From Psilocybe cubensis (taxonomy: Eukaryota), in NCBI GenBank assembly GCA_017499595.2, contig CM038998.1:4030001-4094000 (forward strand): a DNA stretch of 64,000 nt, in the 5' to 3' direction. Position 1 is the stretch's first letter. The number at the start of each line of letters is the position of its first letter. Shown here one piece after another: positions 3,882 through 45,977 of the stretch. Under the pieces are notes generated by a model. That model saw nothing but the letters and a program-made list of their open reading frames with translations, was not told the DNA's origin and did not search any database. Position numbers and translations under genes: made by a program.

Positions 3882-5233
3882 ATGTCCACATCCACATCCA
3901 CCGTGAACCTGACCAACTACCCCCCACGCGACTTCAAAGGGTACGGCCGTGTGCCGCCCAACCCGAACTGGCCCAACGGCGCCAAGATCGCGGTCAACTT
4001 TGTCATCAACTACGAAGAAGGCGGCGAGAACACGCTCGACAACGGCGATGCGCAGGGCGAGGCGATGTTGCAGGAAGTCGGCCCCGTGCGTTTTTCTCTC
4101 TCTCTTTCTTTTTCATTTCATGCTTTTTAACCTCTGCGTTTCTATTTGTATATCTGACTTTACTGATTCTGTTTGGCCTTTTTTGTTTTTGTAGAAAATT
4201 GGATTGCAGGGCGAGCGCGATATTCCGATGGAGACTCAGTTCGAGTACGGCTCGCGCCGCGGTATGTGGCGCCTGCTCAACCTCTTCGAGAAGCACAACA
4301 TGGCCGTGACAATCTACGCCGTCGGAAAAGCATACGAGCAACAACCGTACGTTTCCCCTCCCACCCCTTCCCACCCCACCCTTCTCACACAACTCACATT
4401 TCCCAATTTCCCAATTTCCCAATTTTTTGTAATCCAGAGACATCGCCGCGGCATGCGAACAAGGCGGGCACGAAACAGCCTCGCACTGCTACCGCTGGAT
4501 CGACTACACGCTCATGGACGCCGAGACGGAGGAGAAGCATATCAGACAGGCAGTCGAGTCGTTTAAGAAGACGAGTCCGACGGGCAAGGTCCCTGTCGGG
4601 TGGTACTACGGCCGCCCGTCCCCGCGCAGCCGCGCGCTCATATCCAAAGTGTACCGCGAGCTCGGTCTGGAGCTTTTGTACCAAGCTGATACCTGTACGC
4701 GCTTTCTTCTCGTATCTTAAAACCTTTTTTTTTGCTGAACTTCCCTCTGTCCCTCTGCTCCGCCCACAGACGCCGACGACCTCCCATACTACATCCCCGA
4801 CCCCATCGCAGGCCCCTCCGAAGGCCTCCTAATGATGCCCTACAGCTACGACTGCAACGACTTCAAATTCTTTGTCGCGCCAGGGTTCGGCTCCTCCATG
4901 GCCTACTTCGAACACGCCAAGAACGGGTTCGATACGCTGTATGAGGAAGGCGAGAACGGGCAGCCGGCGTATCTTACTGTTGCGCTGCATGCGCGGGTTA
5001 TTGGACGGCCTGGGAGGTTTCAGGCTATTAAGCAGGTGCGTTGGTTTTTTGCTTTCTTTTTTTGATGGGATGGGATGTGTGTTGATCGTTGAGGATGGTT
5101 TCCTTTTTGTTTCTTTCTTTTTCAGTTTGTTGAGTATGTGGCGCAGAAACCTGATGTGTGGGTTGCTACCCGCGAGCAGATTGCGAGGCATTGGAAGGCG
5201 CAGTACCCGTATCAACCTCCTAGCGCTGCCTAG
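3882..5233 (+). CDS. Polysaccharide deacetylase (CE4) family protein, PuuE allantoinase / S. pombe Cda1-like; multi-exon
   Basis: Spliced ORF pieces give PRDFKGYG..PNWPNGAKIAVNFVINYEEGGE, FEYGSRRGMWRLL, HETASHCYRWIDY, GWYYGRPS, PYSYDCNDFKF, LHARVIGRPGR, VWVATREQIARHW; stop TAG at 5231-5233. Confidence 0.9.
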
Positions 5234-17113: not shown

Positions 17114-20100
17114 ATGACCTCTCAACCATTGCTTAGAGCGCAGAAGGCTTCAGAATCTGAGACTTATGGTTCTTCAATAACAGCGAATGTCAACTCCAAT
17201 TTGCCCAGGTGTGTATACAACACAAGTTCTTCCCTATCCTATCCCGGTGCAGAATAAGACTAAATCATAAAGAACTTCAGAGATACCAGCCAATCAATCA
17301 GATGGATCGAACCAGAAACTCACGAATTTCGTTCTCAAATTGCATCAGGAATGGATAACGAGTTTGTCGAGTGCAGCGTTGATATCTTTTTGAAGCATTA
17401 CCTTCCCTTTGAACCATCAGATGAAGCCGTTGAAACATGCATTGCAAAACTTCTCTGCAAACCTTTTTCTTTCGTCGACGGCGTAAGTGGTGCAAATCCT
17501 AGGTCCGAACAGGTTCCGGAAAAGCCTAGGCGATCGACGTGTGTAAAAACGTTGCCACAGCCTAGTTGTATCGAAAGGCATCCTATATTGTCAGTAGTAA
17601 AGTTTAAGGAACAGAAAGAACCAACAACTTGCGACGCTGAAACAACTGTTCTTCGATTCACAAATTACATGATGCGCCCTGGCAGACAAAGTTTAGGAAA
17701 CAAGAGTGTCTTCGCGCAATTGAAGTCTATTGCTGATGCAGTCGGAGGCCACAGCGAGACCTGTGACGGCAGAGTTCGCAATGATTTTCATTATCTAAAT
17801 TGTCCGGACGCAGTCATTTCGTCAAACATAGGGGGCTTTAAGAACAAGATCGACGCCTGCTTTTCCAATGGAGGAAGTGACTTGAACGTCAAGAACATCG
17901 CTGTGCCTATTGAGCAGCAAGCTTGGGTGGCAAGCAAATACTTTGTGAGTAAAATTTAACCAAGTATCACGTACTTTCTGCCAAACTTTTTCAAGACTAG
18001 TGACCGTCAGGTAGTATCCGCAAATGTTCAAATTATGAACGATGACGTGCGGCGTATGTTCACCTATGGGGTATGTAGAAATAGACTCTGCAAGACGGAA
18101 TATTTCTGATTTTTATTGGTTTCAGATGACCTTTGAAGGCGATAAGGCAACGCTGTGGTATCATTGTCGCTCTCATTCTGCTGTTTCGAAACAATTCAGC
18201 TTTGTCGAGGTATTTAGCATGCTTCTTTTCAATTGATGAACATTATTGATGTAATAGTCTCTAGAATCCCAGATTACTTGTCAAGGTGTTCTTATCGTTT
18301 CTATTTGCAACAGACGAAGAACTCGGCTACGATACCAACGTCACTGCAGTCGAAGGCAAGAAGCGTCAATACATTTTCAAAATCCCCAGTTCTGATGGGA
18401 AATCGGCCAAGTTCTACCGCACACTCAAGGTACTTTCTGAATACCCCTCGAACAACATCTCTGGTCGCATGGCGCGTGTATGGTTGGTCGATCGGGTCGA
18501 TTCTGATGGCAACAAAATTGGCCCGCCATGCGTCTTGAAAGACGTCTGGCTATCCATAAATGCTCTCACTGAAAAGGAGATCCAGACGGCCATCTTTGCA
18601 GATATTGAAAAATACTGTCATCCCGATAAGCCAGATTACAACCTGGCACTGGATCCTCCTACACGCTCTCCGCAGGCTGCTCTCAATGCTATCAAGATGC
18701 GAAATGCCGAGCTTGTTGAATCTGGAGAGTACAAGCAGTACTTTCTTGACATTGAAAGTGACTATTCTGGCAAGCCATCCAAAGACGTTTTGGAGGGATG
18801 TACTCCCGACATGGGCTTGTTTCACAGCGCCCATGCGAATAGGATCGCATCTTTGAACAACATTTCTATTCCATCGGTGGGATCGACAGGTTTTTCAAAG
18901 ACTCGTCGGTCTTCCATTAGAACATATACCCCCCGTAAACAGTATCGCGTCATCTTCAAAGAAGTCTGCCAGGCTGTGGGTGATCTGCCTACTTTGGGGA
19001 AGGTGGTTAATGTGCTCAAACAAACTGTTATTCGTGAGTGACAATCTTGATCAAATATCCACATTTTCTTATGTACTCTCTAGCCCTCTCTCTCTTGTAT
19101 TGCGCCAACTGGGTACACAGAGATATCAGCTCTGGGAACATTCTTGCCCATCAGCAAGGCTCAGTCTTTCGAGCTAAGTTATCAGACCTTGAATATGCCA
19201 AGAAATTTCCGCCACCTGCAGACCATCAAGGCAACGCTGATGCCAAAACGGTACATTTGCTATTTTAATCTTCCATGTGTACTGCTTTCCAAACAACATT
19301 CCAGGGAACTCCCTTTTTTATGCCTGTTGAGATAATGCAAAACTGTTATCTGTATGGCAAACCGAAAGCCGACAACGTAGATTCAAGAATCGAGGACCCA
19401 GTTATTTTGTTGGCAGAAATGCAACGCGTCGAGCATGGTGCTATGAATGATAAAGTTTGGACGAAAATACCATCTTATGAGGCGGTAATCTATAATTTCC
19501 AACACGATTTAGAGTCACTTTGGTGGGTCTTAGTGTGGTCTCTAACTGCACGTGTCAACCACCAACCTTCCAGGACGTGGGCCAACCAAATTTTTCAACA
19601 TGCCGATGTACCTACCTCTGAGAGGGTAAAATTTCTAAGGCCCTTTGACGAAAAGGATCTTGACACAAACACAAAAGCTCAGGACCCTTTGCAAGCTACC
19701 ATGCTCCCATCGATCTCATTTCTCAACTACATCGTGAACATTTTAAAAGATGCCTTGCATGTTGCTTATTCAGAGCATACAAGCAATGCCATCCTGAGAG
19801 AACCGCTATCTTATGCTATTGTTGTAAACCGCTTTTATTTGGGTTTCCAGCTATTCGACCGTGTTGCTGGCGCCCCCTGGGAGGAAACCCCTCTGGTGAT
19901 GAACATCCCTGCTGAAGGTCCCGACACTGTCCAACCTGTTGATACCAATACAGCAGTGTCTAGTGCTCCTTCACTTATCCCCCATCAAAAGGGGTCCAAT
20001 CCAAACATTCGGAAGACAGCACCCTCAGAATCGTTTCAACCAGGCTCGGGCGACGAAGACGTCAAACCTACCATAGAACAGCAAAGATCAAAGCGCTTTA

Positions 20101-20177
20101 AAAACCAGGATGATTCTATCACCAGCAGTTTGATGACTGGGCGCCAATCCAAATCAAGCACAAGATCGAAAGCTTGA
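17114..20177 (+). CDS. Fungal-type protein kinase (FunK1/Pkinase_fungal), copy 1; multi-exon
   Basis: QIMNDDVRRMFTYG, ISGRMARVW, VLKDVW, HRDISSGNIL, LSDLEYAK, GTPFFMPVEI, QHDLESLWWV. Confidence 0.85.
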
Positions 20178-20561
20178 GATGATGATTCAACTCGACGTCA
20201 ATAAAAAGCGACCTCCATCTCGTGGTTTTACGGGCCGTACTTTTACAGTTGTTGACTCAATAATTTATACTGTGTTGTAGCTAGTATATAAATCCATAGA
20301 TAAATTCGCGATAGCACAAGATTTTCTCAGTCACAATTAAAAAAACCATTGCTTCACCTAATGCACAAGGGGAGGCAAGATTTCTTTGTCGGAAGAATAA
20401 TAATGAGCATACCGTGAGAATGTGTTGACACCGTCACATGCCAGGCAGTGAACGCGTTGAAATGGCATTTTACATCTCCTCTATATAAGTCACCTATGTT
20501 CTGATATTCCTTGTGCGTCAGAATCCAGCACAATAATACCCCCTCATTTACAATCCTCTCT

Positions 20562-23389
20562 ATGTCTACCTATGAGTGCCTTTTCCAGCGCCAAATGGAT
20601 AACGAGTTTGTTGAGTGCAGCGTCGATGTTTTCTTGGAGCATTATCTTCCATTTGAGCCTTCTGAACTAGCTGTCGAAGTATGTATCTTGAGACTTCTTG
20701 GAAAGGACCCTGTTCCCACCAGCAATGCTACTGAAGGTTACCCCAGCCCCGAACAGGCTGCAAGAGCGCTTAGACGATCCACATGCTTAACACCACTTCA
20801 TCAACCTGTCAATGACAAAGAACAGCCAATATTGTCGGAAGTCATACTGGAGGAAACCACTGCTCTTCGATTCACCGACTATATGGAACGTCCTAGTAAA
20901 CAAGAGGCAGTGGAGAAGACGTTATTTGCTCCCTTGAAGTCTATCGCTGATGCCGTCGGAGGCTACAGCGAGACCTGTGACGGGAGGGTTCGCAACAATT
21001 TTCAGTATCTGAATTGCACGGAAAGAGTTATTTCGTCGGACATCGGGGGCTCAAACAATAGGATAGATGCCTGCTTTTCAAATGGAGGAAATGATCTGTA
21101 CACAAAGGATATCGCTGTGCCTATTGAGCAAAAGGTCTCCTGCGCCAACAGGGATTTAGTAAGTGTTATGCAACCTTTTGCACATGCTTTTAGCCAATCT
21201 TTTCTTCAAGAACAACTGTCAGGTAGTATCAGCAAATGTTCAAATCATGAACGATGACGTGCGGCGCATGTTCACCTATGGGGTACGTAGAATAGACTCT
21301 GCAAAACGGAATATTCTGATTTTTATTGGTTTCAGATGACGTTTGAAGGTGATAAGGCAACGCTGTGGTATCATTGTCGCTCTCATTCTGCTGTTTCGAA
21401 ACAATTCAGTTTTATCGAGGTATGCTCGTATGGTTCTTTTGAATTGGCAAATATTATTGATCTAATAATCACCCTAGAATCCGAAATTACTCGTCAAGGT
21501 GTTCCTGTCATTTCTATTTGCAACACACGAGGAACTCGGCTACGATCCTAACGTCACTGCGGTGAAAGGCAAGAAGCGTCAATACATTTTCAAAATCCCC
21601 AGTTCTGACGGGAAATCGGCCAAGTTCTACCGCACTGTCAAGGTACTTGCTGAATACCCCTCGAACAACATTTCTGGTCGCATGGCGCGTGTATGGTTGG
21701 TCGACCGGGTTGATTCTGAGGGCAACAAGATTGGCGCGCAATGCATCTTGAAAGATGTCTGGCTTTCCGTAAATGCTCTCACTGAAAAGGAGATCCAGAC
21801 AACCATATTTGCAGATATTGAAAAATACTGTCATCCCGACAAGCCAGATTACAACCTAGCATTGGATCCTCCTGAAGACTCTCCCGAGGCCTCTCTCAAT
21901 AATATCAAGATGCGAAATGCCGAGCTCGTTAAATCTGGCGAGTACAAGCAGTATTTCCTCGAAATTGAAAGTGATCATGGTGGCAAGCCATCCAAAGATG
22001 TTTTGGAGGGATGTACTCCCGTCACAGGCTTGTTTCAGAACGCACATGCGAATAGGATCACATCTGTGAACAACAATTCTATTCCATCGGTGGGATCGAC
22101 ACCTTTTATAAAGAGTGGACAGCAATGCAAGCGAACATTTACCCCCCGGAAACAATATCGCGTCATCTTTAAAGAAGTCTGCCAGGCTGTGGGCGATCTA
22201 CCTACTTTGGGGAAGGTGCTTAATATACTTAAACAAACTCTCATACGTAAGCTCCAACCTCGATTAAATTTCTACATTTATTCATGTATACATCCGTAGC
22301 CCTTTCGCTCCTGTACTGTGCTGGCTGTGTACACAGAGACATCAGCTCAGGGAATATTCTTGCTCATCAAGAAGGCAGGATCTTGCGGGCCAAATTGTCA
22401 GACCTTGAATATGCCAAGAGGTTTCCTCCACCTGAAGATTATGAAGCCAACGGTGACGCCAAAACGGTACTTTGTTATTTCACTCTTCTATGGGTCTTGT
22501 TGTCTCAACAAAATTCCAGGGTACTCCTTTTTTCATGCCTATCGAAATAATGCAAGAATTTTATATATATAATCGAATCGACAACAAGAACGACATAGAA
22601 TTTGCAATTCGCGATCCATCTCTTTTTGTCGCCAAACAACAACTCGCCCAGCTTGGTGCCCGCAGGAAAAATACTTCGCAGAACGATATGTCTTGTAACT
22701 CGGTGATCTATAATTTTCAACATGATCTTGAGTCGCTTTGGTGGGTTTTAGTGTGGTCTCTAACCGCACGTGTCAGCCACCAACCTTCCAGGACCTGGGC
22801 CAACGAAGTTTTTCAACATGATGTCGTGCCTACTTCTGAGAGGATACGCTTTCTGAGGGCTTCGTCCAGCATCACGCTTGAAGATATCATGCTCCCATCA
22901 ATCTCATTTATGCATCTCATGGTGGACTACATACGATCTGCCATGAATATTGCGTATTCAGAACGAGCAAGGGACGACACACTCAGAGACACGCTATCTT
23001 ATGCTATCATTGTAGACCGCTTCCATTTTTGCTTTAAACTACTCGAGAGTGTCGCCGGCTCCGCTTGGGAGGAAACGCCTCTTGTGATGAACATCCCCGC
23101 TGATGGCCCCAACTCTGTTCAGCCTGCCGATGGCGCTACAGCAGCGCCCGGTGCTCCCTCACTTTTTTCTAGTCGTAAGAGACCCAATCCAGACATTGGC
23201 AAGGCGGCACCCTCAGAATCTTTTAAACCAGGCCCGACTGACGAAGACGTAGAAGCTACCCTGGAACGGCAAAGGGCTAAGCGCATCAAAACGCGGGATG
23301 ATCCTAACGCAGGCGGCGGCTCAAATGCCGGAAGGCAATCCAACACCGGGACAATAGACGACAGGGCGTCGATCCAAGTTGGGCACTAG
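20562..23389 (+). CDS. Fungal-type protein kinase (FunK1), copy 2; short N-terminus
   Basis: Same motifs and intron positions as copy 1; starts MSTYE and runs almost directly into MDNEF. Confidence 0.85.
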
Positions 23390-27025: not shown

Positions 27026-27302
27026 TGTCAGGGTACGTATTGGTGCCACCCCTATCCGTTATTGTTATCTGTTACGGTCCCACGCTGTCATGCCTTGTTC
27101 TATCTTTGTGTTCAGTCCTATGTCTATCGTTCCCCTGTTTCATCTATTGATAGTTGTCATATATTGAGTACTCTGGTCCAGGAAGTAGTTACTCTGGTCT
27201 CCATGTATATATAAGGTCCTGGGGTTAGTAGTCAGACCCCAGCTTTAATATCAACTTGGTCTTTGGGCATTCTTCTCTCTTGACTTAAGTCGATTCCTAA
27301 CA
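27026..27302 (+). mobile_element. Solo LTR (277 bp) of the KH-encoding LTR element, TSD GTTAG
   Basis: TGTCA...TAACA ends; colinear with the reverse complement of 31759-32035 (14 substitutions counted by eye); GTTAG at 27021-27025 and 27303-27307. Confidence 0.95.
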
Positions 27303-30300: not shown

Positions 30301-31758
30301 GTCAAATCGTCGATAGGTCCCACTAAGATATCCACTGTGTAGGACAACAGTTGTAACAACAGTTTATTGTATTTGGCACCTAAGGATCAATTTAATCAGT
30401 GCACAGTAATTATAATTATGTCTTCTTCCATATGCTTAGACTCTGTCAAGGGTGTGAATTCCTCCAATTTTTCCCGGGTACGTCTCAATTTATTCTGGAT
30501 GAAGACCTTCGGCGCCGGTTCTATGCTCATTGCATCCTAGATAAAGTATTAAAATTATGCTACTGTATTATTGGAAAGAATTACCATGTCATAGTGCACA
30601 GAACAGGGTTCAAAAGTCCAACCTTCAGGTGCAATGAACACCCTTCTGTTATGGTCGATAAAAAGATCCTGATCCTTGACAATGTCAACTTGTTCAAATT
30701 TGGCAAGTGTATCAATGATTTGCGATTTGAGTGTGTCAAGATGCATCAATTGCAAATTTTGACAATGAACGACAATCTTGACAAAACATTCTATGAGACG
30801 GCGCTGAAGAGACTCTAGCAATAAAAAGTCAGGGTCCAGAAATGTTTCACATAACACAACCTACAAAGCTCCTGATTTTGATTGCAGAAGTTAGCCTAGA
30901 GTAGTAATCTTCCAAATTGAACCATAGTATACCCACATTCTCAAAATTAGGCACGTTTTCATTGTAGAATTTTCCCTTCGCTTAATTAGCAATGGCAATT
31001 AAAATCAAGTAAGAGCTTAAATGTCCAAAATGTTGACTTTAGCTTACACATTATTAATGGTATCGTATTTACTTACTTTTTAGAGTTCAACATATTGTTT
31101 TGTTGCTGTTTGGCTTGCCTTGCTGCACGTTCGGCATGTTTATTGTTGCTTGCACGCCCCTAATAACAACCAAGAAAGAGGGGTTAGAAGAAGGTAATTC
31201 CCAAAGTAATTGCCTGTCTATCTCCTTCTGTCAGAATGATTCAACTTAAGATAAAGAGTTAGAAGCCATCCCTGTGGTTATCTGTAATTGCGGATTGCTT
31301 GCCTTCTGTTTATTCTATTAAATGAAGTATTCAGGGTTTGACAGACCATTGATCAGAGAAAGATCTACAAACCTTAATGTGGTCGGCATAAACGCAATCC
31401 CGATCAAAAAAGCAACTTTTGAAAAAATGCCATCTTCTGCACAAGAAGAAAGATTGGATATATTAGATGGAATGCCTGATAATGACGCACTTTTTTCTTT
31501 GATTCTTCATTTCTCTTCTCGAGTATTCTCAAGATTTCAACTGTCCGGGACGTCATCCTGTCCGCAAAGTTGATATGATCTTGAGCAGTGGTACTTAAGG
31601 ATGTTATGAGTCCCTCATAAGTGTTTTCTAGGGTGCTTATGAATGTTCAGTTTCTTGGATGAATGACAATAGATGAAACTGATTTCTAACCATTGTTTGA
31701 GCATATTGGTATCCTGTGATTTGGTGGGATTGCTGCCAAACACGTAAACCAACAACAC

Positions 31759-32035
31759 TGTTAGGAATCGACTTAAGTCAAGAGAGAAGAGTGCCCAAAG
31801 ACCAAGTTGATATCGAAGCTGGGGTCTGACTACTGACCCCAGGACCCTATATATACATGGAGACCGGAGTAACTACTTCCCGGACCAGAGTACTCGACAT
31901 ATGACAACTATCAATAGATGAAACAGGAGAACGATAGACGTGGGACCGAACACAAAGATAGAACAAGGCATGACAGCGTGGGACCGTAACAGATAACGAT
32001 AACGGATAGGGGTGGCACCAATACGTACCCTGACA
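31759..32035 (-). repeat. 3' LTR
   Basis: 277 bp, identical by eye to 33065-33341; preceded on the minus strand by the PPT. Confidence 0.95.
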
Positions 32036-32048
32036 TCACCTCCCCTCT
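32036..32048 (-). other. Polypurine tract
   Basis: Minus strand AGAGGGGAGGTGA abuts the TG of the 3' LTR. Confidence 0.85.
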
Positions 32049-32076
32049 AAAGGTCGGTGTCCCAACGACCTGGTCT

Positions 32077-32973
32077 TCACCGTGGACGGTTTGCACCAAA
32101 GACACGAGGCGGTCCACCGCCACGACGCGCGGTCTGAATTCCCTCCCTAGGCTGAACAGGCCCGGGGCGAGAGTAACCGTCAGAGTGTTGCTGCGGAGCC
32201 CTGAGAGCGTCCACCTCCATAGGCGAACCAGGGGCGAGCGACGAGGATGGGCTGGAGCGAGTGTCGACAGCCGTAGGAGTGGGCAAATGCGGAGAAGCCG
32301 TCCCGGAACGGGATGTCCGCGTAGTTGGGGTAGAGCTCGAGGTTGGAGTAGGAGAAGGAGGTTCAACGACGAGGGTAGGAGGGGCGGCAGTGGGCGCAGG
32401 AGGCTGTTTAGGCTTCTTGGACCTAGGGTTGCGGATGCGACGACGGGCAATCCGCTTGCTGATAGCAGAAAGAGCATCACCAACTTCACGAGCGGTGCCC
32501 CTGATAGTGACGGCACGCAAACCGGAGGTGACGACGGGGGAGACCGAGATCTTTGCGTGCGAGATGTCGTGGATTTGGCGTAAGCCAGTTCCCGCGCGCC
32601 CTATGACATGGCCAGCCTGTTCGTCCGCAATAGACAGGGTAGCGACGATCTTCTCGAGGGCGGCTTTGGTAGTAGTAGAGCGGATGGATTGGGAGTGCGG
32701 GGGCCCTGTAGTAGGGGTAGAGGTAGGTGCAGCCGGGCGTTCCTTCCTAGAGGTGCGTCGAGCGCGAGATGCGCGAGCAGAGGGAGTGGGAGCGGCAGGC
32801 GGTTTGGGTAGGGAGGCTGTGAGGCGTTCAAGTTTAGACTCGATGGCAGACAGTCGGTCATCAACCTTTTTATCGGCGTCAAACCGGACTTGCTGCGCCC
32901 TAAAGAGAAGGGCGAAACGGTCCTCAAGGGACATCGTCATGAACCCATCGTAAGGCGAAGGAGGGTCGGCCAT
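32077..32973 (-). CDS. KH-domain RNA-binding protein (298 aa, intronless) carried by the LTR element
   Basis: aa ~109-175 VATLSIADEQAGHVIGRAGTGLRQIHDISHAKISV...RAVTIRGTAREVGDALSAI fits a type I KH fold with a GxxG loop; N-terminal heptad helix, basic KRIARRRIRNPRSKKPK, Pro/Ser/Thr linker, PMEVD motif. Confidence 0.85.
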   Translation of the reverse strand: MADPPSPYDGFMTMSLEDRFALLFRAQQVRFDADKKVDDRLSAIESKLERLTASLPKPPAAPTPSARASRARRTSRKERPAAPTSTPTTGPPHSQSIRSTTTKAALEKIVATLSIADEQAGHVIGRAGTGLRQIHDISHAKISVSPVVTSGLRAVTIRGTAREVGDALSAISKRIARRRIRNPRSKKPKQPPAPTAAPPTLVVEPPSPTPTSSSTPTTRTSRSGTASPHLPTPTAVDTRSSPSSSLAPGSPMEVDALRAPQQHSDGYSRPGPVQPREGIQTARRGGGPPRVFGANRPR

Positions 32974-33051
32974 AGAGTATAGTAGGTGGGGGCAAGGTAG
33001 AGTGGAGTAGACGAGCGCTGCAGTGGATAGAGTACCAGGGCAACGTTGGGT

Positions 33052-33062
33052 AGCTTCGATAT
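33052..33062 (-). other. Putative self-priming primer-binding site (11 nt)
   Basis: Minus strand ATATCGAAGCT begins 2 nt after the 5' LTR and is the exact reverse complement of AGCTTCGATAT inside the LTR (33126-33116); no TGG tRNA-type PBS. Confidence 0.75.
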
Positions 33063-33064
33063 GC

Positions 33065-33341
33065 TGTTAGGAATCGACTTAAGTCAAGAGAGAAGAGTGC
33101 CCAAAGACCAAGTTGATATCGAAGCTGGGGTCTGACTACTGACCCCAGGACCCTATATATACATGGAGACCGGAGTAACTACTTCCCGGACCAGAGTACT
33201 CGACATATGACAACTATCAATAGATGAAACAGGAGAACGATAGACGTGGGACCGAACACAAAGATAGAACAAGGCATGACAGCGTGGGACCGTAACAGAT
33301 AACGATAACGGATAGGGGTGGCACCAATACGTACCCTGACA
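33065..33341 (-). repeat. 5' LTR with TATA box (33154-33161)
   Basis: 277-bp TG...CA direct repeat; TATATATA begins 35 nt upstream of the PBS-complementary 11-mer. Confidence 0.95.
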
Positions 33342-33454
33342 AACACTTTAGTTTTCTTCTCCGAAGCTTTACGAGCCAAAACTTGAAGCTTGGAGGCAAA
33401 CTCTCGTTCCAAGGCGATGTGGGCCGTGTAAAGCTCCCGCATCTGTATGTTGCA

Positions 33455-34744
33455 TCATCAGCAAAAGTGACCAGACCCCCAAATGCCTTGGGAGCCTTAT
33501 AAGGCATGCCAATGTTTTACGTGACACAGTAATGTCACGCAAAACATTTGGGCAACATTTGGGAACACTCAAATCATTTGGTGGTCATTTGGAGGCCCCA
33601 CAAACATTTTTGAATCACAAAACAAGCACCAAATAATTTCTAGTAACTACAATTTACAAAAAAAAATTTGTACACTGTGCAACCTTGAAGGAATCATTTA
33701 ACAAAATTAAAAGAGGTCACAAAACATTTGGTTTTACACTTCGGTTATGAGAAATGTTTACAGGACTTTCAAATGCTGATGAAATAATTCATCCACACCA
33801 AAATTTACTGGCTATACAGCCACATTAGTTCTAATTAGAATTCTGTACAGTTGGTCACCCGGTCTGTACAATTTCTCGACTGTCAACGAAGTCACAATGC
33901 GATCAGCGTGAATCGGAGTGAATCGGAGATCAAATATTTGTTTGTTTGTGCATAATAATCTCTTTCAACCCCCGTTTCTTTCTTTCCACATACTCTCATG
34001 TTCACTACTCCGGCGACGCTTGGTGGGACTTGGGCTTGGACTTTTCAACTCTAAGTCTTCGTATATCATAGCTGAATCTAACTCACAGGTAATTCTGCCA
34101 CTTCCTTTCTGATTAGATCATCCTCAACTGACCATGTATCTGCCTTTCCGTAGACCGTTCTCCTTCTGCCTTAGATCTACTGGATATCCGGCTTGGTATA
34201 TAATCATTCACTAGTTCCCAAACTTTTAGGTGAGTATATGCGCACTTCTGCACACACACCTTGCTTACATTATGCGACCAAAGTAGCTCCTATAATTCAT
34301 GGGTACCATCTATTGATGACATCGTCTCAGCATCATTTTGTTATTTAACCACTTTCTCGCTTCTCTGTACCTTTTGGAGTCATGTTGTAGTATAAGTTTT
34401 CTTAATGCAACAAGTTCTTTTTACTTGCTATGATAATCTGAGGGATCCACTAAATAATGAACCATGTGAACTGTGTAAAACATTTAAACACTGGCAAATG
34501 TTTGCCAAATGTTTTTGGGACTCCCAAATGTTGCCTAAATGTTACGGACACTCAAATTTTAACCAAATGATTTGGCTATATTTAGTACTACCTAAATCAT
34601 TTGCTTGGAATAAATAATTCGAAGCCTTTCAGTCTTCGGAGTCTCTCGTTACGAACCGCACAATGCCTTTCGGGCATTGGGGCCTTTGGACGCCTCCAAA
34701 TGCCTTGTCAAGGCATTTGGGGATCCGAGCACTTTTGCTGATGA
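33455..34744. mobile_element. Non-autonomous TIR DNA transposon in a BZZ1 pseudogene intron
   Basis: Left TCATCAGCAAAAGTGACCAGACCCCCAAATGCCTTG versus right reverse complement TCATCAGCAAAAGTGCTCGGATCCCCAAATGCCTTG; TTGCA at 33450-33454 and 34745-34749; repeated subterminal AAACATTTG/CAAATG motifs; removing it restores a short intron. Confidence 0.85.
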
Positions 34745-35838: not shown

Positions 35839-40110
<4,272 letters not shown>

Positions 40111-43084: not shown

Positions 43085-45977
43085 ATGTCTACCTCTGAGG
43101 GTACCTCTACCAGCACGTTGTCTGTAACTGGTTTAAATCACGATGGTGCCACTGCTGCCGCACCTTCAACAATTACATATACTAGCACCACCCCTGATGC
43201 AGGCTTTCTGGTAGAACACGCCATCAACAACGACTCAAATGACTCTACAAGCGATAAAGGAGTCACAGCATCCAAGATTTCCGCAGATGCTGCTTTGGCA
43301 ACGAAAGTGGATGCCGACTCCAATGAGCCGAGGTGTGTGGCTTCAGCCATTGCTCTTTCTTCCTTCAGGGTGACAAGACTTCAGTAGACGCTCGGAAACA
43401 CCCCAAACCAATTGCGCGGATAACACAAACGAAAATCTTTCCATCCTTCAGTCACAGATTGCATTAGAAATGAATGACGAGTTCATCGAGTGCAGTGTCG
43501 ATGTTTTCTTCAAGCATTACCTTCCATTTGAGCCTTCAGAAGCAGCTGTTGAAGAATGTGTCCTGAGACTTCTCTGCAAGGATCATGCTCCCAATGGCGA
43601 CGCTGGTGAATGTTTCCATCCCAAACAGGCTCCTATGACGCCTAGACAATGCGCACAAATTAAGCCACTTCATAAACTTGACGACAACACAGGCCACCCC
43701 ATATTGTCGGAAGTTGTGCTAACGGTTGGGTATCCGGATACTCCTGGTCTTCGATTCACCGACTACATGAAACGGCCTGGTAGCCACGGCTCTGTGGAAA
43801 AGACAGTATTTGCTCCCTTGAAGACTATTGCTGATGCCGTTGGGGGCTATAGCGAGACATGTGACGGCAGGGCTCGCAACAATTTCCAGTATCTCCATTG
43901 TCCGCAGACAGTCATTTCATCGGATATAGGGGACTCTAAAAGCAGGATAGATGCCTGCTTTTCCCATGAAGGAAGTGATTTACACACCAAGTATATTGCT
44001 GTGCCTATTGAGCAGAACGTCTCCGCCGCCAACAGGAATTCAGTAAGTGTTATGCAATATTTTTACACATGCTTTTTGCCAACCTTTCCTTTAAGAACAA
44101 CCGTCAGGTAGTATCGGCAAATGTTCAAATCATGAACGATGACGTGCGGCGAATGTTCACCTATGGGGTTACGTAGTAGAAATAGACTGTGAAAAGGCAA
44201 TATTTCTGATTTTTAGTGGTTTCAGATGACCTTTGAAGGCGACAAGGCAACGCTGTGGTATCACTGTCGCTCTCATTCTGCTGTTTCGAGACAATTTAAC
44301 TTTGTCGAGGTATGCTTGTGAGGTTCTTTTGAATCGGCGAACATTACTGATCTATTAATCTCTAGAATCCGAAATTACTTGTCAAGGTGTTCCTGTCATT
44401 TCTATTCGCAACAGACGAAGAACTCGGCTACGATCCCAACGTCACTCTGGTCGAAGGCAAGAAGCGTCAGTACACTTTCACAATCCCCAGTTCTGATGGG
44501 AAATCGGCCAAGTTCTACCGCACTGTCAAAGTTATTTCTGAATATCGCTCGAACAACATTTCTGGTCGCATGGCGCGTGTATGGTTGGTCGATCGGGTTG
44601 ATTCTGAAGGCAACAAGATTGGCCCGCAATGCGTCTTGAAAGACGTCTGGCTTGCCGTAAATGCTCTCACTGAAAAGGAGATCCAGACGGCCATCTTTGC
44701 AGATATCGAAAAATACTGTCACCCCAACAAGCCAGATTACAACCTGGCATTGGATCCTCCTGAAGACTCTCCCGAGGCCTCTCTCAATGCTATCAAGATG
44801 CGAAATGCCGAGCTCGTTAAGTCTGGCAAGTACAAGCAGTACTTTCTTGACATTGAAAGTGATTATTCTGGGAAGCCATCCAAAGACGTTTTGGAGGGAT
44901 GTACTCCCGTCACAGGCTTGTTTCAGAACGCCGATGCAGATAGGATTGCATCTTTGAACGACAATTCTATTCGACCGGTAGGATCGACACCTTTTATAAA
45001 GAGTGGACAGCAACACAAGCGAACATTTACCCCCCGGAAACAATATCGCGTCATCTTCAAAGAAGTCTGCCAGGCTGTGGGCGATCTGCCTACTTTGGGG
45101 AAAGTGCTTAATATACTTAAACAAACTCTCATACGTAAGCTCCAACCTCGATTAAATTTCTACATTTATTCATGTAGACATTCGTAGCCCTTTCGCTCCT
45201 GTACTGTGCTGGCTGGGTACACAGAGACATCAGCTCAGGGAATATTCTTGCTCATCAAGAAGGCAGGATCTTGCGGGCCAAATTGTCAGACCTTGAATAT
45301 GCCAAGAGGTTTCCTCTACCTGAAGACTATGAAGGCAATGTTAATCCCAAAATCGTACTTTGTTATTTTACTTTTCTAACCGTGTTGCTGTCCTAACAAA
45401 ATTCCAGGGCACTCCTTTTTTTATGCCTGTCGAAATAATGCAAGACGTTTATCTATATAGTCAAATCGTCAACGATGACGACCTAGAATTTGCAATTCAC
45501 AACCCGACTCTTTTTATTGCCAAACAACAACACGATCTTGGTGGCCCCCGAAAAAATACTACGCAGAACAATATCTTAGAAAAACCGGTGATCTATAATT
45601 TTCAACATGATCTCGAGTCGCTTTGGTGGGTTTTAGTGTGGTCTCTAACCGCACGTGTCAGCCATCAACCTTCCAGGACCTGGGCCAACCAAGTTTTTCA
45701 ACATGATGTCGTGCCTACTCCTGAGAGGGTACGCTTTCTGAGGGCTTTGTCCAGGATCACGCTTGAAGATATCATGCTCCCATCAATCTCATTTCTGCAT
45801 GTCCTGGTGGAACTCATAAGATCTGTCATGAATATTGCGTATTCAGAGCTTGAAAGGGGCGACACATTCAGAGACACGCTGTCTTATGCCATCACTGTAG
45901 ACCGCTTTCATTTATGTTTTCAACAACTCGAGAGTGTCTCCGGCGCCCCTTGGGAGGAAACACCTCTTGTGATGTGA
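43085..45977 (+). CDS. Fungal-type protein kinase (FunK1), copy 3; C-terminal tail truncated by a 2-bp insertion
   Basis: Same motifs and introns as copies 1 and 2; GTGATGTGAACATC here versus GTGATGAACATC in the paralogues creates TGA at 45975-45977, while tail homology continues to about 46260. Confidence 0.8.

Follow-up and report, generated by a model that had tools for sequence, protein, structure and literature searches.

The 64,000-nucleotide (nt) stretch of Psilocybe cubensis DNA analyzed here (assembly GCA_017499595.2, contig CM038998.1, positions 4,030,001 to 4,094,000; hereafter the window, with positions counted from its first letter) carries a 1,583-bp long terminal repeat (LTR) element on its minus strand, to which all element coordinates below refer. 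Its two LTRs are 277 nt each and 100% identical: the 5′ LTR (33065..33341) runs from TGTCAG to CTAACA, and the 3′ LTR (31759..32035) is its direct repeat, in which the TATA box, hairpin and arm described below occur a second time. A repeat finder gives 278 nt for these repeats because one G past each terminal CA matches by chance. A 5-nt target-site duplication, GTGTT, lies at 33342..33346 on the 5′ side, and the same 5-mer is found past the 3′ LTR at 31754..31758, where the joint of an empty site also places it. A polypurine tract, AGAGGGGAGGTGA (32036..32048), abuts the 3′ LTR, and polypurine-like runs also precede the 3′ LTR in related loci. The twin LTRs, the duplication and the purine run identify a complete LTR retrotransposon.

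The 1,029-nt interior of this element contains a single open reading frame (ORF; 32973-32077) encoding 298 aa with a KH type I domain (Pfam KH_1, E = 5e-9), which is the sole Pfam match in the interior. We found no gag, protease, reverse transcriptase (RT) or integrase there, and the element is therefore non-autonomous. It thus combines TG..CA LTRs, a target-site duplication, a primer-binding site (PBS) and a polypurine tract with the lack of RT and integrase that marks non-autonomous LTR retrotransposons. An 11-mer at the edge of its 5′ LTR very probably serves as that PBS, and the primer would be the element's own RNA (i.e., the element would be self-primed).

An 11-nt pairing at the edge of the 5′ LTR

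The 11-mer ATATCGAAGCT (3′ arm; 33052..33062) is the exact reverse complement of AGCTTCGATAT (5′ arm; 33116..33126) within the LTR, as a first-pass annotation made from the letters alone had pointed out. The helix is exactly 11 bp long because the flanking bases do not pair. The 5′ arm is present in both LTRs and the 3′ arm occurs once in the element. The first-pass annotation had placed the PBS just inside the 5′ LTR; it lies just outside, after the terminal CA (33066-33065) and a 2-nt GC spacer (33063..33064). A 2-nt spacer is what is expected between a PBS and the CA that integrase exposes, as at retroviral DNA ends. There is no TGG-type PBS: no TGG occurs 0-5 nt from the LTR end and the first one lies ~29 nt further on, in keeping with the earlier reading.

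Upstream of the 5′ arm, a probable TATA box, TATATATA (33154..33161), has its first T 35 nt from the A at 33126, the distance that had been reported. Between the two lies the inverted repeat that the same annotation had described, a hairpin of CTGGGGTC (33148-33141), a loop and GACCCCAG (33132-33125), spanning 33125..33148, whose final two bases are the first two of the 5′ arm. The arm is followed by a conserved block, CAACTTGGTCTTTGGGC (33099..33115).

We found that the pairing exceeds chance. When the upstream 250 nt were shuffled by mononucleotide, only 1 of 2,000 shuffles contained a complement of at least 11 nt to the 16 nt after the LTR end, and six control 16-nt windows placed 20-120 nt downstream in the same element had complements of at most 6 nt. 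An operational definition of self-priming asks for at least 10 bp of complementarity starting 0-5 bp after the 5′ LTR (as set out in excerpts of PMC6317226); the helix here has 11 bp and starts 2 bp after the CA. The helix is also present in both the minimum-energy and the centroid structures of the 97-nt leader.

Helix conservation and covariation in related elements

The KH ORF has 36 homologues. Several are from P. cubensis (98% identity to NCBI proteins so named), while others come from Agrocybe pediades (75% identity), Psilocybe cf. subviscida (54%) and Dendrothele bispora (47%), and many are metagenome proteins on 1-2-kb contigs. Relatives of the element were reached via this ORF, with an alignment of 29 homologues (A1) leading to 36 metagenome loci (L001-L036). 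In many of these loci the ORF is enclosed by direct repeats spaced 1.26-1.58 kb apart, or the ends overlap in the way that collapsed LTRs do, and the family as a whole is therefore one of small LTR elements. The ORF is kept at 250 aa or more in 18 of the 36 loci, and most loci are LTR elements of 1.5-2 kb.

A perfect helix of 9-13 bp with both arms was found in 27 of the 36 loci, with one arm inside the LTR and the other after the LTR's ..ACA end. The PBS arm lies 0-4 nt from the LTR end in all 26 sequences in which this was scored (26/26), with a spacer of 2 nt in 19 of them, and in one locus (L003) the helix closes a loop of 179 nt. Complements of at least 10 nt were found at 25 of 26 true sites and at none of 156 control windows 20-120 nt downstream, where the maximum was 9. 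Among the remaining loci, two (L006, L022) have a PBS-like site on a contig that lacks the LTR part, and three (L018, L023, L024) are contigs without upstream sequence. The first-pass annotation had proposed that, under self-priming, the complementarity should be kept in diverged family members through compensatory changes; this is what we observed in the 27 loci.

The sequences of these helices differ widely. Including that of the window, there are 16 distinct helix strings, or 12 after nested length variants are merged. Two types are common, with 5′ arms AGCTTGTTAT (9 loci) and AGCTTGATAT (5 loci). The others, beside the AGCTTCGATAT of the window, are TTAGCTTTGATAT (L010), AGCTTTGAAAT (L014), ACCTTGATAT (L001), ATCTTGATAT (L009), TAGACTTGATAT (L004), ATCTTTGCAAT (L003), ACCTTAGAATTA (L007), ACCTTTGAATTA (L012) and ACCTTTGAATTT (L002). 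In several cases, two helices are distinguished by a single base pair in which both bases have changed. The two commonest types, AGCTTGTTAT/ATAACAAGCT and AGCTTGATAT/ATATCAAGCT, are separated by T:A to A:T; the window helix and that of L010 by C:G to T:A; AGCTTCGATAT and AGCTTTGATAT, as well as ACCTTAGAATTA and ACCTTTGAATTA, also differ in this way. Helix position 2 is found as G:C, C:G and T:A.

Structure prediction and alignment statistics agree with this picture. RNAalifold, given 13 diverse members, predicted the same helix unaided, with 7 of 12 pairs compensatory. In an unfitted MAFFT alignment (A2), 73% of 311 cells were paired, versus 29-37% when the partner was slid; the figure is only 73% because the ACCTT..AATTA group is one column out of register. 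Eight of the 13 pairs in A2 change on both sides. That count of 8 pairs was reached by 96 of 500 shuffles, whereas the observed pairing, cell count and covariation score were reached by 0 of 500. A search with a covariance model made from 13 sequences located the module at 24 sites (E <= 1e-7), and the fitted alignment made from its matches has 95.8% of 263 cells paired, versus 33-54% with the partner slid by 1-3 columns; 7 of its 12 pairs and 34 cells change on both sides, values that 0 of 500 shuffles equaled, and alignments fitted in this way lean towards the model's structure. The distinct helix types are sturdier evidence than the alignment statistics.

Since the sequence of the PBS changes together with that of the LTR arm from relative to relative, these data argue against a site matched to a conserved tRNA. 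tRNA scans found 0 tRNA genes in the window and the 36 loci, and an Rfam scan of 31500-33600 gave 0 matches at E <= 1. Together, the helix at the same place in 27 of 36 loci and its compensatory changes strongly support the earlier proposal that priming is tRNA-independent and uses the element's own LTR-derived 5′ sequence.

Proposed priming scheme, its helper and alternative readings

In 22 of the 25 family sequences with enough upstream DNA, a TATA-like motif begins 28-38 nt before the arm; of the remaining three, two carry TACATAAG or TACTATAAG at the same place and the third carries a 10-nt deletion. The arm opens with A in 25/25, preceded by C in 23 and by T in 2. The TATA spacing and the pyrimidine-A step have the geometry of a TATA-directed start, and it is plausible that transcription starts at the arm's first base, much as the first-pass annotation had suggested with a start near 33126.

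In the scheme we propose, transcription would begin at A 33126 of the 5′ LTR, or no more than a few nt away, ~35 nt past the TATA box, so that the 5′ arm would form the first 11 nt of the transcript. These 11 nt would fold back onto the PBS over a 53-nt loop (R-U5 plus the 2-nt spacer), and the RNase H of a helper's RT would cut the RNA at the 3′ end of the duplex. The freed 3′-OH would then be extended by the helper RT into minus-strand strong-stop DNA, as in Tf1. Finally, the plus strand would copy the primer while it is still joined to the minus strand, and the PBS would thus be rewritten from the arm in every cycle, a step drawn from the general scheme of reverse transcription. Such rewriting would explain why all 27 helices are perfect Watson-Crick pairings in which arm and PBS change together, and why the shortest helices are found in older copies with diverged LTRs (L013, L021).

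The closest precedents are Tf1 and Tf2 of Schizosaccharomyces pombe and Tj1 of S. japonicus, in which a PBS right after the 5′ LTR complements the element's own LTR; Tf1 shares with the window element an 11-bp duplex and, as the missing TGG suggests, the lack of a tRNA-type PBS (excerpts of PMC7175516 and PMC4600332). In Tf1, the RNA's initial 11 bases anneal to the PBS, and RNase H cleavage falls between bases 11 and 12 (PMC7175516, in the part covering Tf1). Unlike these three, the window element lacks gag-pol and depends on borrowed RT, RNase H and integrase, carries a KH ORF instead, and resides in an agaricomycete host; its hairpin overlaps the first 2-3 nt of the primer, and its start and cut are predicted from sequence. 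Proposals or predictions of self-priming also exist for Tcn1 of Cryptococcus neoformans and for its clade, and the mechanism is expected in basidiomycetes (according to excerpts of PMC7175516 and PMC6317226). Members of that clade differ from the window element in being autonomous chromoviruses, and we liken the two by description. For a plant member, SM-Tcn1, the part of PMC2864245 that bears on it reports no evidence of tRNA priming or self-priming. In the Ty1/copia TAR lineage (Houba and Osr-1, of plants), self-priming is predicted by the same definition of at least 10 bp starting 0-5 bp from the LTR (excerpts of PMC6317226); this lineage differs from the window element in superfamily and in belonging to the plant kingdom. 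Finally, the element resembles TRIM and LARD elements in having LTRs, a PBS, a polypurine tract and a 5-bp duplication but no pol, and TRIM and LARD elements are mobilized in trans. At 1.58 kb it falls between their two size classes, and it has one conserved ORF under purifying selection, which TRIM and LARD elements are not known to carry.

In the search for a helper, a Pfam scan of 75 window ORFs found no RT, integrase or gag, and 13 longer loci contained no pol-sized candidate among ORFs of at least 130 aa (judged by size, not Pfam). Fusions of KH with RT or integrase were absent from a search for longer proteins, which is weak evidence by the tool's own note; the best 150 KH profile matches are all at most 845 aa long, and the three that were scanned, of 759-781 aa, carry KH_1 only. 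Membership of the Tf1/sushi group is defined by pol phylogeny together with an integrase C-terminal chromodomain. Self-priming elements such as Tf1 are of the Ty3/gypsy type, and Tcn1 comes from a basidiomycete; a chromovirus is thus the better guess, and we consider it probable, though well short of certain, that the helper is of the Tf1/sushi/Tcn1 type, close to what the first-pass annotation had named. A less likely but serious contender is an autonomous partner from another self-priming lineage, for example of the Ty1/copia type or from an undescribed group. The 5-bp duplication does not discriminate between the two, and no helper of either kind turned up in the window, the loci or the KH fusions; what speaks against another lineage is that self-priming elements such as Tf1 belong to Ty3/gypsy and that Tcn1 is basidiomycete. 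Because predictions of self-priming cover the Ty1/copia TAR lineage and the Tcn1 clade alike (PMC6317226, in excerpt), the signature alone does not name the superfamily of the helper.

The hairpin in front of the arm bears on where the primer would begin. In the window it folds at -15.4 kcal/mol, a value reached by 1 of 200 shuffles, and 23 of 25 family sequences are predicted to form a comparable hairpin immediately upstream of the arm, 20 of the 25 beating 95% of their shuffles. Its 3′ strand includes arm nt 1-3, with which its 5′ strand co-varies (GCT..AGC, GGT..ACC, GAT..ATC), which indicates that both strands are together in one nucleic-acid molecule at some point of the cycle. These features could mean that self-priming is real but that transcription starts further upstream, so that the primer would consist of the hairpin plus the arm and be freed when RNase H cuts internally, which would make it a structural variant of the Tf1 scheme. 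We regard this as improbable. Only ~11-13 nt separate the first T of the TATA-like box from the start of the hairpin's 5′ strand, which is generally too little for RNA polymerase II to start upstream of that strand, and both strands coexist in DNA intermediates and in the RNA's 3′ LTR part, so that the covariation is explained without a shifted start. With the start at the arm, the hairpin lies between the TATA box and the presumed start, and in RNA only the 3′ LTR copy would therefore hold it. The hairpin may mask this 3′ LTR copy of the primer, which we offer as an idea and not as a result.

Alternatively, the helix could be a leader structure with another role (packaging, dimerization, translation control or a stem of the U5-leader type), with a tRNA fragment or some other host RNA acting as the primer. 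Retroviral leaders do have conserved stems around the PBS, and the window element resembles the retroviral U5-IR and U5-leader stems in having a conserved U5-leader pairing near its PBS; priming here is also deduced from sequence. In those stems, however, the pairing flanks a tRNA PBS, whereas here the 3′ arm itself occupies the PBS position (2 nt after the CA in 19/26, 0-4 nt in 26/26). This leaves no room for a separate PBS, and a U5-leader-type stem beside a tRNA PBS was rejected on this ground. Furthermore, the sequence of the site varies among relatives while tRNAs are conserved, there is no TGG, and 27 exact Watson-Crick helices over 9-13 nt fit a site recopied from its primer better than a selected stem. 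We thus judge this explanation very unlikely. A chance match, for which one could cite that the 11-mer is built of short palindromic, AT-rich pieces (AGCT, TCGA, ATAT) and that 1 of 2,000 shuffles reached 11 nt, is refuted by the relatives, since in 27 related loci a helix of differing sequence occupies those two positions and 0 of 156 controls reach 10 nt; we give it almost no weight.

Several observations, besides the lean of the fitted alignments, weigh against self-priming as set out here. The 97-nt leader folds no better than its shuffles (z = -1.1; 31 of 200 fold as well), and leader folding energy was dropped as evidence because this is not significant. Four of the 36 loci (L005, L011, L025, L027) have a KH match without LTR-like upstream sequence, and the five incomplete loci named above offer too little sequence for a verdict. 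Nor are the relatives independent of one another: two helix types account for 14 of the 27, and many of the loci belong to a few related sample series. Among 40 of 297 rows of variants from one raw-read run and three contig runs, none falls at 33052-33062 or 33116-33126, which is uninformative either way. A hairpin that overlaps the primer is not known as a feature of Tf1, and the presence of such a conserved hairpin between the TATA box and the arm would allow transcription to start further upstream.

The block that follows the arm is CAACTTGGTTTCCGGGC-like (33115-33099), opens with CAACTTGG and is the most conserved part of the LTR in the family alignments A2 and A3. It may provide R homology for strand transfer, or a structure recognized by the helper. 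A 14-nt pattern taken from this R block gave 120 loci in viral contigs, of which 0/120 had an arm/PBS-like complement, and these were set aside as chance matches.

The KH-coding family and its mobility

The element has moved recently. An empty site is joined from 31753 to 33342 by 43 reads of one raw-read run and by one contig of another run, and this joint skips 1,588 nt, that is, 1583 + 5 (the element plus one duplication). The insertion is polymorphic, and with its identical LTRs the carrier is a live substrate. In a raw-read run with the same species label, summed depth was ~54-70 over the flanks, ~300-480 over the interior and up to ~840 over the LTRs; an interior at ~5-8 times flank depth indicates that the whole unit, ORF included, is present in several copies. 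On the plus strand, at 27026..27302, lies a solo LTR of this family, with the duplication GTTAG and 95% identity to the LTR of the full element. Its arm has decayed to AGCTTTAATAT (27241-27251), no PBS follows it, and of the 14 positions at which it departs from the LTR of the full element, 13 are C>T or G>A, the pattern that cytosine deamination or a process like repeat-induced point mutation would leave. Among the relatives, related elements in four loci (L020, L026, L028, L029) lie in or beside another LTR type that begins TGTAAGGGCTACTGC, and at 3946-4038 L036 has a second module that is rearranged and whose decayed PBS is complementary at 8 of 10 nt; these five loci are nested or recombined copies.

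The 298-aa protein has a long N-terminal helix, the KH type I domain, a basic stretch and a disordered Pro/Ser-rich tail with a QTARRGGGPP-like end. Its AlphaFold2 model (mean pLDDT 64.7) has the long helix at residues 16-53 and the KH fold at 109-180, the rest being disordered. We considered the ORF as a capsid protein (gag) and rejected this, as neither a capsid-like fold nor a zinc knuckle was seen in the Pfam result (KH_1 only) or the AlphaFold2 model, from which the fold was judged without a fold search. Of the read variants listed inside the ORF, 11 of 13 are synonymous, which indicates purifying selection among copies. At window position 32460 (codon 172), the window copy has Ser in an AI[G/S]KR motif where 288 of 324 reads and all other homologues have Gly; its Ser is thus a minority, non-consensus residue next to the KH domain. 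A KH profile search gave 1,194 matches at E <= 1e-3 and 71 at E <= 1e-30, in at least 71 clusters at 50% identity, and literature searches turned up no description of KH-coding LTR elements.

Taken together, these features lead us to suggest, tentatively, that the carrier represents an undescribed, ancient and active family of mini LTR elements (~1.5-2 kb) in the Agaricomycetes, in which a self-primed RNA would be brought into helper particles by a KH protein doing the RNA-binding job of Gag, and in which a hairpin at the U3/R boundary would mask the 3′ copy of the primer.

Elsewhere in the window, ORF pieces at 18265-23389 and 44366-45187 (plus strand) match the fungal protein kinase family PF17667 and look like a cluster of FunK1-type kinase paralogues; kinase ORFs of this fungal kind fit a mushroom-forming host, as does the identity of the KH ORF to P. 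cubensis proteins. This region contains a partial internal duplication, with 20000-20118 and 23188-23306 being 78% identical. A long CAGACG hexanucleotide run (12-nt spacing according to the repeat finder) at 38890-39147 lies within long ORFs on both strands.

Self-priming itself is already known from Tf1 and has been predicted for other fungal, vertebrate and plant elements, and our literature searches found it in basidiomycetes or non-autonomous elements only in the papers cited here. What is new is, first, that 16 helix variants in one family form a natural covariation series, which supports self-priming in basidiomycetes far better than one pair of sequences could. Second, self-priming would here be used by a non-autonomous element, whose PBS/primer pair must still suit the RT and RNase H of its helper. 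Third, the carriers are a conserved KH-coding family with a conserved hairpin that overlaps the primer. If the masking idea is true, the hairpin would leave only the 5′ copy of the primer, which lacks the hairpin's upstream strand, free to anneal, and would thereby tell identical R copies apart.

For genome annotation, this means that LTR pipelines that score tRNA-type PBSs will miss or down-rank such elements. In P. cubensis, the insertion, being polymorphic, is usable as a strain marker and is a possible source of mutation. The idea has been put forward that small RNAs made from tRNA fragments target tRNA PBS sites (abstract of PMC7472051); a tRNA-independent PBS should escape silencing of this kind.

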